Shown in pieces: positions 30,193-32,538 of a DNA stretch of 39,628 nt. Position 1 is the stretch's first letter; each line of letters starts with the position of its first letter. The translations under genes were made by a program, and so were the position numbers. The notes under the pieces were generated by a model that did no database searches, was not told where the DNA came from, and was given only the letters and a program-made list of their open reading frames with translations. Source of the stretch: a virus. Lineage: Duplodnaviria > Heunggongvirae > Uroviricota > Caudoviricetes. Location of the stretch: the IMG/VR virus record IMGVR_UViG_2565956762_000004. The stretch is one strand, 5' to 3'.

Positions 30193-30686
30193 TACGCCCC
30201 CACGTAATTCCCTGACAGATACCACTCATCACTCGATACAGCGCGCTTGCTGCTTTTCCGTAAACACAGCTCACGACGCGCCAGAAAATTGTTTCGTTCT
30301 GGCTGGGAGTGGCTTTCACGGAATGCCGCCATCCACACGGTTGCAGCACGACGGTATAAGCCCCTGGACTCCAGTTCTTCAGCCTGGCGGGTCAGGCACA
30401 AAATCACCCGTGGATCGTTAGTGCCGACATAGAAATTGCGCACAGGTCTGGTTTCTCGAACTGGTTGTGGTTCCGGTTCCTGCGCTCTCTCAGTCAGGCG
30501 CGGGAAATGTCTGCGTGTATCTCCTTCACAACGGTGAGCCACACGCCCACTCTGACGTAACTTGCTTGCAGACTGCAGAACGCGCTGCCGTGAGTAACCT
30601 GCAAAAGCATCCGCAATGTCTCCGGAAGTACACCCCGGATGGGCTTCAATGAATTTCTGAACGTCATTTAACAGACTCATGATCAC
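30192..30686 (-). CDS. PerC-family-like putative regulator
   Basis: 164 aa; weak motif match only (LYRRAATVW). Confidence 0.3.
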   Translation of the reverse strand: MIMSLLNDVQKFIEAHPGCTSGDIADAFAGYSRQRVLQSASKLRQSGRVAHRCEGDTRRHFPRLTERAQEPEPQPVRETRPVRNFYVGTNDPRVILCLTRQAEELESRGLYRRAATVWMAAFRESHSQPERNNFLARRELCLRKSSKRAVSSDEWYLSGNYVGA

Positions 30687-31624
30687 CCTCTGAATCCTGT
30701 CGGGATCTGGCTGTAGTCCACGTTGTCGTAACTGGCTTTGAAGTACGGGTCCTCGCGTTTTTCGGTGTACGTGCTGACGGACGGCGATAAGCGCAGGGAA
30801 AGCTCATCCCATTTTTCCCGCAGCTTCGACGGGCTGAGCACGTTACGGCACCAGAACGGATCGCGGCTGACGCGGCTGTACATCTCGCAGATTTGTTTGT
30901 GAGTACGCCCATCCTGTACACACATCAGGCGAATTTCGTTTGCCCAGGCTGTCCAGTTCGGTTCTTTGGGACGAACCACCTCGCCGTCACATTCGGCAGC
31001 CTGCTCGTACAGGGCGATGATTTTTTTCCAGAGCCACTGTGCGCAGGTCAAATCATCCTTCGTCCCCCACTGGCGCTTTTTAGGGCTGAATACAACCGCA
31101 TCAGGATGGCGAGTTAAAAAATCCTGTTCATCCGTCTGCGTGTCCGGTTGCGAAGCGTCCGGACGAGAAGGTTTTTTATCTGACGGATCATGTTTTGATT
31201 TTACTGACGGATCCCCGCCAGATTCTGACGGGTGAAAACCCGCTTTTTTGCCAGATTTCGACGCATCAAATTTTGACGGGTCAGATTTTGATGCGTCAGA
31301 TTTTGACGGGTCAGAATCTGACAGTTGAGAAAATGCCGCTGCCTGAAGCTTCGCAACGTTAAGCTGATAAACATTCGACGCATTGCGGTTACCCTGGCGA
31401 CGCGCCTTACGCGTTAACCAGCCTTCTGCTTCCAGCCGTGCGATAGCCGTTCTGACGGTACTCATCCCCGCGCCAATTTGACGGGCAATGGTTTCAATTG
31501 ATGGCCAGCACACACCTTCGTCATTACTGAAATCAGCCAGGCGGGCCATAATTGCCACGCTGGATAACTTCATGCCTGATGCAGCGCAACCATCCCATAC
31601 ATAACCGGTTAATTTAGTGCTCAT
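30683..31624 (-). CDS. replication initiator (lambda O-like, N-terminal HTH) with repeat-encoded linker
   Basis: 313 aa; winged-helix N-terminus; central DPSKSDASKSDPSKFDASKS repeats encoded by the DNA iterons. Confidence 0.6.
   Translation of the reverse strand: MSTKLTGYVWDGCAASGMKLSSVAIMARLADFSNDEGVCWPSIETIARQIGAGMSTVRTAIARLEAEGWLTRKARRQGNRNASNVYQLNVAKLQAAAFSQLSDSDPSKSDASKSDPSKFDASKSGKKAGFHPSESGGDPSVKSKHDPSDKKPSRPDASQPDTQTDEQDFLTRHPDAVVFSPKKRQWGTKDDLTCAQWLWKKIIALYEQAAECDGEVVRPKEPNWTAWANEIRLMCVQDGRTHKQICEMYSRVSRDPFWCRNVLSPSKLREKWDELSLRLSPSVSTYTEKREDPYFKASYDNVDYSQIPTGFRG
31172..31325. repeat. iteron-like direct repeats (about 8 copies, consensus near ATTTTGACGGGTCAG) inside the initiator gene
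   Basis: Repeats at roughly 15-24 bp spacing followed by an A/T-rich stretch at 31161-31171. Confidence 0.5.
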
Positions 31625-31633
31625 AACCGACCT

Positions 31634-31972
31634 CTATTTCCCTGAATTTACGACGAAACTGTTCGAGCGGACTGAAGCATTCATGCTCATAACCTTCGCG
31701 GAGGTAGATAACCCGTTGTGTTTCCGGCTCCCAACGAATGACTCTGACGGGCACTCCGTAGTGATCTTTGAACCAGCGGTTAACTTGTCGCAAAGGACTG
31801 TCTCCTTCTGCCGGTTGAAATCACCCACAGCCCACTCTGCAAAGCTGTGGGTTACAATTTCCCTGTCACCTGGTACATTCACTGCATAGCAATATTCCAC
31901 CTTCGCTTTTCCACCCGGTACAGGAAGCGCAATCAGTTGCGAGCGACGGTAGTGTGTTGTTAAACTGTTCAT
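31634..31972 (-). CDS. hypothetical early protein (112 aa; size and position match e14 YmfM from memory)
   Basis: ORF between ymfL-like and initiator genes, same strand. Confidence 0.4.
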
Positions 31973-32538
31973 GCGTTAGTTTCTCCACAACCAGAAGCAA
32001 TCGACGCCACGACGCCCGGAGCTGCACACTCGCGGGCGTCATTACTTTCTGAAATGCAAAAAATTTTGTAGACAAGTGCTGCATGCTCCTGCAGCTTCGA
32101 AATTGAGAGATACAGCTCGTCGTTAATTGCTGTCTTCTCATGCGGTTCCACTACACCGTCTTCGATTGCTGAACGAATCTGTTTTGAATAACTGCCGATC
32201 TGTTCAATGACTTCCAGCAGACGCTGGTTAATATCGGCGTTGTCCACATCCTCGACGTCAGGAAGAGACACAAAGACGCCATTTGCAGACTGCGCCACAG
32301 CATCAGCAATGAAGTGAGTGCCACCAGCACGCTGTAAAACCATTGCCCATCCCAGCGGGAAAATCTGATCGCCATCTGCACGAAGGCGGTTGAATAAAGC
32401 GTTTTCTGTTACATCGAGCCAGTCAGCCGCTTCAGCGTAACCACCCGGCAACGCCGCGATAGTTTTTCTGACAGCTTTCACGTACCACTCAGGCTGTTTT
32501 TCTACTTTCCAGTGATGCTTACCCACGATTAGCCTCAT
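31969..32538 (-). CDS. hypothetical early protein (189 aa; size and position match e14 YmfL from memory)
   Basis: First large gene after cro on the rightward-equivalent operon. Confidence 0.45.

Follow-up and report, generated by a model that had tools for sequence, protein, structure and literature searches.

The stretch of DNA analyzed here, referred to below as the window, is a virus sequence of 39,628 nucleotides (39.6 kb; Duplodnaviria, Heunggongvirae, Uroviricota, Caudoviricetes) from the IMG/VR record IMGVR_UViG_2565956762_000004. Its minus strand carries a gene for a replication initiator, and short DNA repeats were found in the middle of this gene, where they occupy codons 102 to 151 of 313 and encode SDSDPSKSDASKSDPSKFDASKS...HPSES..DPSVKSKHDPSDKK. 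These repeats, which we considered as a candidate origin of replication, sit in the linker between a winged-helix domain (amino acids, aa, 23 to 70) and a C-terminal module that starts at approximately aa 165. The features at the center of this locus are the following.

30683–31624, minus strand: replication initiator gene (313 aa) from the list of open reading frames (ORFs), with an N-terminal winged helix, a repeat-encoding linker, a C-terminal module and a DnaT-like tail.
31415–31558, minus strand: HTH_36 winged-helix DNA-binding domain, codons 23 to 70 (Pfam, E = 4e-11), the presumed reader of the repeats.
31252–31326, no strand assigned: tandem array of five 15-nt units found by repeat searches, TCT GAC nCr TCA AAA on the sense strand and CAGATTTTGAYGNGT on the plus strand.
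31172–31240, minus strand: conserved 69-nt block with three GAYCCRTCAG sites (31223–31234, 31202–31213 and 31178–31189), spaced by 21 and 24 nt.

A previous sequence-only reading of the window had described about eight copies of a motif, regularly spaced in the middle of the initiator gene and encoding a repetitive DPSKSDASKS linker. We indeed counted eight copies within 155 bp, namely the five tandem units and the three distal sites, a number that none of 100 shuffles matched. Their location in the linker of an O-like (PHROG 391) initiator and the peptide were also as described, each sense-strand unit TCT GAC nCr TCA AAA encoding S-D-x-S-K. The regular spacing holds for the tandem units, which start in register at 31252, 31267, 31282, 31297, and 31312, whereas the other sites are 48, 21, and 24 nt apart. 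A repeat search returned five copies with start-to-start spacings of 48, 15, 15, and 15 nt. With Tandem Repeats Finder, the segment 31252–31315 was the top-scoring tandem repeat of the window, reported as 4.3 copies of a 15-nt period (score 86) and as 2.1 copies of a 30-nt period (score 100), while every other tandem repeat scored 50 or less. The pattern GAYCCRTCAGWW, searched with at most one mismatch, had eight matches in the window, six of them in 31178–31312 (2.2 ± 1.5 in shuffles, with 0 of 100 reaching eight), and TCTGAYNCRTCAAAA, searched with at most two mismatches, had seven, including five in 31224–31315 (1.2 in shuffles, with 0 of 100 reaching seven). Both patterns clustered at the initiator linker and nowhere else in the window. 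Each 15-nt unit contains an 11-nt dyad, TCA-N5-TGA, and the fold of the array as single-stranded DNA gave a z-score of -4.87, with strong dyad symmetry.

To see how the repeats are conserved, relatives of the initiator N-domain were gathered from 79 genome loci of Enterobacterales, including Escherichia, Citrobacter, Kosakonia, Kluyvera, Yersinia, Rahnella, Pantoea, Proteus, Providencia, and other genera. Most of them shared 69 to 100% aa identity with the window and a few distant ones 34 to 41%. An intact gene was found at 67 of the 79 loci, and 51 sequences were left after removal of near-duplicates, with an average nucleotide identity of 71% over the N-domain. All 67 intact relatives had the SDxSK array and, after it, the block F-D/H-P-S/P-E-S-G-G-D-P-S-V...D-P-S, the number of tandem copies ranging from 3 to 10. 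Third codon positions were compared where the amino acid is conserved: the most common base reached a frequency of 0.545 in the N-domain (61 codons), which is near saturation, vs. 0.93 in the block (14 codons, most of them at 1.00; Mann-Whitney p = 6e-8). Similarly, when two relatives had the same amino acid, they used the same codon with a frequency of 0.90 in the block vs. 0.42 in the N-domain, a difference that had the same sign in all 1,275 pairs. Amino-acid identity showed the opposite trend, with 0.68 in the block vs. 0.80 in the N-domain, whereas nucleotide identity was 0.82 in the block vs. 0.71 in the N-domain. Across the family, the block has the consensus TTTTnACCCgnCAGAATCTGGnGGgGATCCGTcAGTAAatTCAA...GAtCCAtcAg. 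Of its 69 columns, 37 were at least 96% invariant and 20 were below 80%; hence, changes are confined to particular columns, which indicates selection rather than recent spread. In the 251 tandem units of the 51 relatives, the first serine was encoded by TCT in 84% of cases, the second by TCA in 85% and the lysine by AAA in 99%, vs. 9, 17, and 63% for these codons in the rest of the same genes (chi-square p = 7e-77 for the position-specific serine codons). As silent sites are fixed and the two serines have different fixed codons, selection acts on the DNA. The repeats are real, and it is their DNA, not the encoded protein, that is conserved.

These results bear directly on the idea that the repeats are a flexible SDxSK peptide linker expanded by slippage, devoid of any function at the DNA level, or alternatively an mRNA structure. 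The segment is rich in Ser, Asp, Lys, and Pro, its copy number is variable, all copies are in frame and the array has the dyad symmetry mentioned above, as such a linker or RNA element could have. However, the silent positions are fixed while the amino acids vary, and the non-repetitive distal block is as constrained as the tandem units, which concerted evolution of repeats cannot explain. A peptide repeat, codon bias or concerted evolution cannot yield this codon pattern, least of all in the non-repetitive block. There was also no consensus RNA structure of note in 31172–31240 (-2.7 kcal/mol). An Rfam match to mir-5880 was spurious, with 30.7 bits against a gathering score of 97. The codon analysis has largely refuted the peptide-linker explanation, and the chance that the repeats are merely a linker or an RNA structure appears very small.

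Other observations were made on the repeats. Two of the distal sites contain a GATC (Dam) site each, at 31186–31189 and 31210–31213, 24 nt from one another; their GAT codon was 100% conserved in the 51 relatives, and gaps as short as 24 nt represent 4.7% of the GATC gaps in the window. Several related phages, SfV and mEp460_4F5 among them, carry a gene for a Dam-type methylase just downstream of the PerC-like gene, and none was found in the corresponding stretch of the window. On the plus strand, antisense to the gene, a terminator-like hairpin (CGGGTGAAAACCCG followed by CTTTTTTG) lies at 31229–31252 between the distal block and the tandem array; it is probably due to chance since three such sites were found in the region for 1.5 expected. 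Finally, many database proteins shift frame inside the array or immediately ahead of it and end in tails such as NLTRQNLTHQNL, which the repeats encode in their other frame. Either the A-runs of the units frequently slip by a single base, as these variants suggest, or they were misread during sequencing; the resulting initiators are truncated, with approximately 140 aa.

The comparison of relatives also revealed that this protein family is modular, with N-domains of three types (N1, as in the window, N2, and N3 or SfV type) combined with various C-terminal modules. Citrobacter phage phiNP has the N-domain and the repeats of the window with a different C module (Pfam Phg_2220_C), and its repeat cores are identical to those of the window while the flanking coding DNA is approximately 82% identical. 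More generally, N1 proteins keep the window-type repeats with module C1, C2 (Phg_2220_C) or other C modules, and both N1 and N2 occur with either C1 or C2. Conversely, phage mEp460_4F5 (N2) shares the C module of the window and has another N-domain and another repeat. The N2 linker contains six repeats with the core GGTCAAAATGAC, whose starts are separated by 23, 23, 23, 23, and 24 nt, followed by three A/T-rich 12-mers (TACAGAGAATAC). As 23 is not a multiple of 3, these repeats rotate through the reading frames, and such a period cannot be a peptide repeat. Both the N2 repeats and the 12-mers are kept between lineages whose N-domains are approximately 80% identical. In our set of loci they are found as follows.

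Locus L085, 1810–1991 (same positions in L134, L156, and L164): N2-type repeats of the mEp460_4F5 group.

SfV orf39, with the third N type, carries repeats of its own; the viral collection yielded only relatives of this type with 100% identity across the query. Taken together, these comparisons show that, as with the O genes of lambdoid phages, the type of repeat goes with the N-terminal DNA-binding domain rather than with the C module. The point at which the modules meet could be located.

31142–31171, minus strand: joint of the N-domain-plus-repeats module with the C module, encoding PSRPDASQPD, where the similarity to phiNP ends.

The DNA of this joint (PSCPVAAQPD in relatives) is common to N1 and N2 genes with C1 or C2 modules, and it is probably where N- and C-terminal modules are exchanged. 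Beyond the initiator gene, methylase genes of phiNP occupy the downstream place that PerC has in the window, and on the upstream side the next gene annotated in phiNP codes for a Rha-family regulator. The genes around the initiator change among relatives, and the array remains associated with the N1 domain.

As for the initiator itself, residues 1 to 313 matched the PHROG 391 profile "replication initiation O-like" (E = 7e-135), a label that reflects function only. At E ≤ 0.01, no match was obtained with Phage_rep_O, the Pfam family of lambda O. The N-domain has a weak similarity to DnaD_N in Pfam, and sequence searches of PDB returned only weak MarR-type matches for the N-domain and none for the C-terminal tail. 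The segment GAGxSTVRTAI, which covers the recognition helix, is nearly invariant in all 67 intact relatives. At the DNA level, a prophage of E. coli strain 1190 carries the same gene (100% identity), and the gene is 98% identical to those of several E. coli phages and of the Shigella phages SfII and SfIV, which are labeled "O protein," "replication protein" or "primosomal protein." Its surroundings are those of a lambdoid early-right operon, with a CI-like S24 repressor, a Cro-sized ORF, a CII-like CP76 protein and DUF4222 upstream, and a PerC-like protein (yfdN), a protein similar to the LexA DNA-binding domain and RusA downstream. No gene for a helicase, a loader or a primase (P/DnaC/DnaB type) follows the initiator in the window, and the listing of the complete SfIV genome contains none either. 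The C-terminus of the protein ends with a short motif of interest.

30686–30712, minus strand: C-terminal nonapeptide SQIPTGFRG, identical at 8 of 9 residues to the C-terminus of E. coli DnaT (SQIPPGFRG; dnaT taken from locus L084, 2479–3000).

A GFR-type tail is found at or near the end of approximately two-thirds of the N1 relatives, irrespective of the C module, and one N1 relative (locus L051) terminates in the SSB-like DDDFI instead. This distribution suggests that the short C-terminal tails are exchangeable and recruit host primosome proteins, SQIPTGFRG being the presumed handle for the host primosome or for helicase-loading proteins. We found no description of a role for the DnaT C-terminal tail in the literature consulted on DnaT.

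The array has a counterpart in the cryptic prophage CPS-53 of E. coli K-12, which contains a truncated copy of the initiator gene, yfdO. Starting at the 3' end of the gene, K-12 is homologous to the window as far as 31391 (codon 78) and no further. Because codons 1 to 78 were lost, the array of K-12 looks intergenic, being located in the yfdO/yfdP spacer ahead of the annotated start of yfdO, and has been read as a promoter operator. Across the array, the two sequences are identical except for one base, in the fourth of the boxes below. In a 2022 study that concerns the K-12 remnant only, this spacer was the strongest peak of the LysR-type regulator SrsR (YgfI) in genomic SELEX (systematic evolution of ligands by exponential enrichment), and SrsR bound in vitro protected 66 bp from DNase I with the boxes TCAaATTTTGa, TCAGATTTTGa, TCAGATTTTGa, and TCAGAgTcTGa (PMC9181523). 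The mRNA of the adjacent leftward operon, yfdONMLK, was increased when SrsR was overproduced and decreased in an srsR mutant (PMC9181523). The 11-bp consensus box is TCAGATTTTGC, to which the four K-12 boxes fit at 9, 10, 10, and 8 of 11 positions and nine other SrsR targets at 6 to 9 positions only (PMC9181523). The corresponding boxes of the window are given here.

31266–31321, plus strand: four 11-bp boxes (TCAAATTTTGA, TCAGATTTTGA, TCAGATTTTGA, and TCAGAATCTGA), the SrsR boxes footprinted in K-12 CPS-53 (PMC9181523).

The tandem array is a proven protein-binding site, for the host factor SrsR, and its descent from the inside of an initiator gene was not recognized in the SrsR paper. One could then propose that the array is mainly an SrsR operator, which drives a leftward early-gene promoter (yfdN/PerC onward) upon host stress, and that the locus contains no origin. 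Only this proposal has direct binding data. As such an operator should, the window carries several copies of the box, near-identical to the footprinted K-12 segment, and the SrsR box is the 11-mer TCAAAATCTGA made up of the best-conserved positions within the tandem unit. Moreover, SrsR orthologs with at least 61% identity are present in several of the Enterobacterales genera that host N1 phages. However, the strongest conservation, that of the block 31172–31240, is found outside the four published boxes, and in intact phages the array lies within an ORF. A scan of 30600–32000 found no sigma-70-like promoter, although activator-dependent promoters often match the consensus poorly. The constancy of the array next to the N1 domain, despite the methylase and Rha genes that flank it in phiNP, also argues against an operator, as does the presence of another repeat at the same place in N2 initiators, which fits the specificity of an initiator better than that of one host factor. 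Furthermore, the box consensus was largely built from these four copies. Among the SrsR orthologs with an organism name, none came from Proteus, Providencia, Pantoea or Rahnella, where the array is present, but this is a weak point as naming is incomplete. On balance, we regard an SrsR operator without origin as unlikely.

We also searched for other signals near the repeats. According to the sequence-only reading, an A/T-rich stretch follows the repeats; this part fared poorly, as the plus strand beyond the array (31326–31380) contains 53% A+T and the maximum overlaps the repeats themselves.

31166–31205, no strand assigned: stretch of moderately high A+T content (70%) at the downstream end of the repeats (relative to the gene), the sole candidate unwinding element and a weak one.

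These 40 nt are the richest of the gene, rank at the 93rd percentile of the window and overlap the last two repeat copies; in the family consensus, their silent positions are fixed as A or T. One weak IHF-like match was observed at 31188–31200, and no DnaA box was present in 30900–31700.

A recurrent deletion breakpoint was observed at 31385–31391 (initiator codons 78 to 80), approximately 60 nt from the array. It was revealed by our first protein search, which returned mostly short truncated or chimeric proteins that were unsuited to alignment. Among the matches listed, which reach down to approximately 165 bits and leave breakpoints before codon 78 outside view, at least 56 different sequences were joined directly after ...KARRQG (codons 78 to 80), including RusA, PerC, methyltransferase, capsid, terminase and tail sheath sequences as well as later parts of the initiator gene, and codons 81 to 101 were almost empty of breakpoints. 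Four junctions were resolved at the nucleotide level, with ends at 31385–31389 and a microhomology of up to approximately 8 nt to GGTAAC(CG). The deletions are collinear and extend up to approximately 12.3 kb where they could be measured against the window. The truncation of CPS-53 in K-12 stops at the hot spot too, from the opposite side, and E. coli genomes contain two complementary classes of partial initiator genes. Directly beside the hot spot, 10 nt of a repeat unit recur exactly (31374–31383 = 31257–31266), which could be due to chance. One possibility is that replication is arrested, or DNA broken, at this site beside a tight protein-DNA complex.

The vicinity of this hot spot, and that of the module exchange joint, which immediately adjoins the block, could also point to another kind of DNA element, such as a binding array for a different regulator of the phage, a site of the partition or packaging type, or a recombination joint kept for module shuffling. 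Indeed, conservation at the DNA level is silent on which protein reads the sites. Nevertheless, the neighboring regulator genes vary among relatives while the array is constant, no other motif cluster was found in the phage, and a recombination joint needs shared sequence rather than a repeated, phased motif with a fixed core. We consider an element of this kind to be improbable.

The repeats are probably a cis-acting DNA element and, as judged from sequence comparisons, most likely the replication origin of an SfII/SfIV-type lambdoid prophage, for which they are a candidate. We favor an origin because of the position of the repeats, their link to the N-domain and the presence of another repeat at the same place in N2 genes, and because the block is conserved outside the four SrsR boxes and the array persists while flanking genes change. 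In this respect, the proposal of the sequence-only reading that iterons lie inside the initiator gene is supported by their position, by selection at the DNA level and by a repeat type that goes with the N-domain. The element is best filed as an iteron origin inside the initiator gene of a single-initiator replication module, a candidate of a known kind. Circular E. coli records of 37.7 and 41.5 kb, deposited as plasmids (NZ_CP081716.1 and CP085522.1), carry this type of initiator at 85 to 90% identity. Replicon and relaxase typing gave no result for either record, and both are probably free circular phage genomes.

Several points weigh against an origin. The accessible literature contains no experiment on initiator binding or origin activity for this initiator family, and the host protein SrsR is the sole protein shown to bind the array DNA (PMC9181523). 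Composition and stability profiles revealed no A/T-rich tract comparable to a classical unwinding element. Because the exchange joint is just downstream of the repeats, their association with the N-domain may reflect mere physical linkage. The eight copies share one reading frame, as expected from in-frame duplication, and the 15-nt tandem period mismatches the helical repeat, so that the sites are not on one face of the helix. We found no description of the origin of SfII/SfIV phages in the accessible literature: the SfIV paper names a "replication module" only, and a paper on Eru-type Stx phages does not treat this type of initiator.

If the repeats are an origin, replication could start as follows. 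The winged-helix N-domain of the initiator would bind the 15-nt units through the dyad TCA-N5-TGA as well as the three GAYCCRTCAG sites, which are approximately two helical turns apart, the nearly invariant recognition-helix segment GAGxSTVRTAI being matched by the invariant DNA core. Several bound initiator molecules would form a multi-protein complex, as lambda O does on its iterons. The duplex would then open in or beside the A-tract-rich repeats, 31166–31205 being the best candidate. Because the phage has no gene for a helicase, a loader or a primase, the C-terminal module and the DnaT-like tail would recruit the host primosome or the DnaB-DnaC machinery. SrsR may modulate this origin or use the same DNA separately. 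A more specific view, that SrsR, whose best target would be the iterons of a prophage origin, competes or cooperates with the initiator and that host stress thereby gates prophage replication, as a host brake or a phage sensor, seems quite doubtful to us. If true, the strongest SrsR site of K-12 would be a fossil origin, and the hot spot with its fixed end would be the in vivo scar of a tight protein-DNA complex or of a site-specific break at the origin.

Among known systems, lambda and Stx phages are the closest in layout, since their origin, composed of iterons and an A/T-rich tract in lambda, is in the middle of gene O (PMC7466680). The parallel with lambda drawn in the sequence-only reading was right for position and layout. 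As in ori-lambda and the Stx phages 933W and P27, the repeats are in the gene of the initiator itself and encode the linker between its N- and C-domains, extra iterons add residues to the protein, and the origin and the N-domain are inherited together (PMC7466680). Unlike lambda, the initiator of the window has an HTH_36 domain and does not match Phage_rep_O, no P, DnaC or DnaB gene comes after it, and there is no clear A/T-rich tract. While lambda has four iterons of approximately 19 bp, the window has 15-nt units in strict tandem and three sites that are 21 and 24 nt apart. The SrsR box cluster of CPS-53 is the same DNA as 31266–31321 of the window with one base different, but in K-12 the array is outside a truncated gene, whereas in the window it is inside an intact initiator gene and is accompanied by a conserved block beyond the published boxes. 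The N2 relatives (mEp460_4F5 and related prophages) have the same modular protein, the same C modules and the same place for the repeats, the cores of which share GTCAAAAT with those of the window. They differ by their N-domain, by six repeats that are spaced by 23 to 24 nt and rotate through the frames, and by the three A/T-rich 12-mers, which make a more classical origin layout. Origins are also contained in replisome-organizer genes of phages of Gram-positive bacteria (for instance SPP1 oriL in gene 38), and plasmids such as P1, R6K, and pSC101 have iteron origins. In these phages and plasmids, repeated initiator sites are in or next to the gene of an initiator with a winged-helix N-domain, P1 oriR having GATC sites within its origin repeats. 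The origins of SPP1, P1, R6K, and pSC101 have been mapped experimentally and have no sequence relationship to the repeats of the window.

This type of DNA is widespread. The array and the N-domain DNA were matched in 2,006 of 5,426 complete E. coli genomes, 1,576 of which hold at least 80% of the region, and array-type DNA is also present in the Shigella serotype-converting phages SfII and SfIV. The probable location of an origin makes the replication of single-initiator lambdoid phages, which have no helicase or loader gene, amenable to testing. An origin would explain why a seemingly disordered linker is encoded by the best-conserved DNA of the gene. The Lamassu defense system has been reported to sense the iterons of the lambda origin during infection (bioRxiv 10.1101/2025.04.02.646746), which links origin iterons to host defense. 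Finally, what looked like an ordinary intergenic operator, the strongest SrsR site of E. coli K-12, becomes a remnant of a phage initiator gene.

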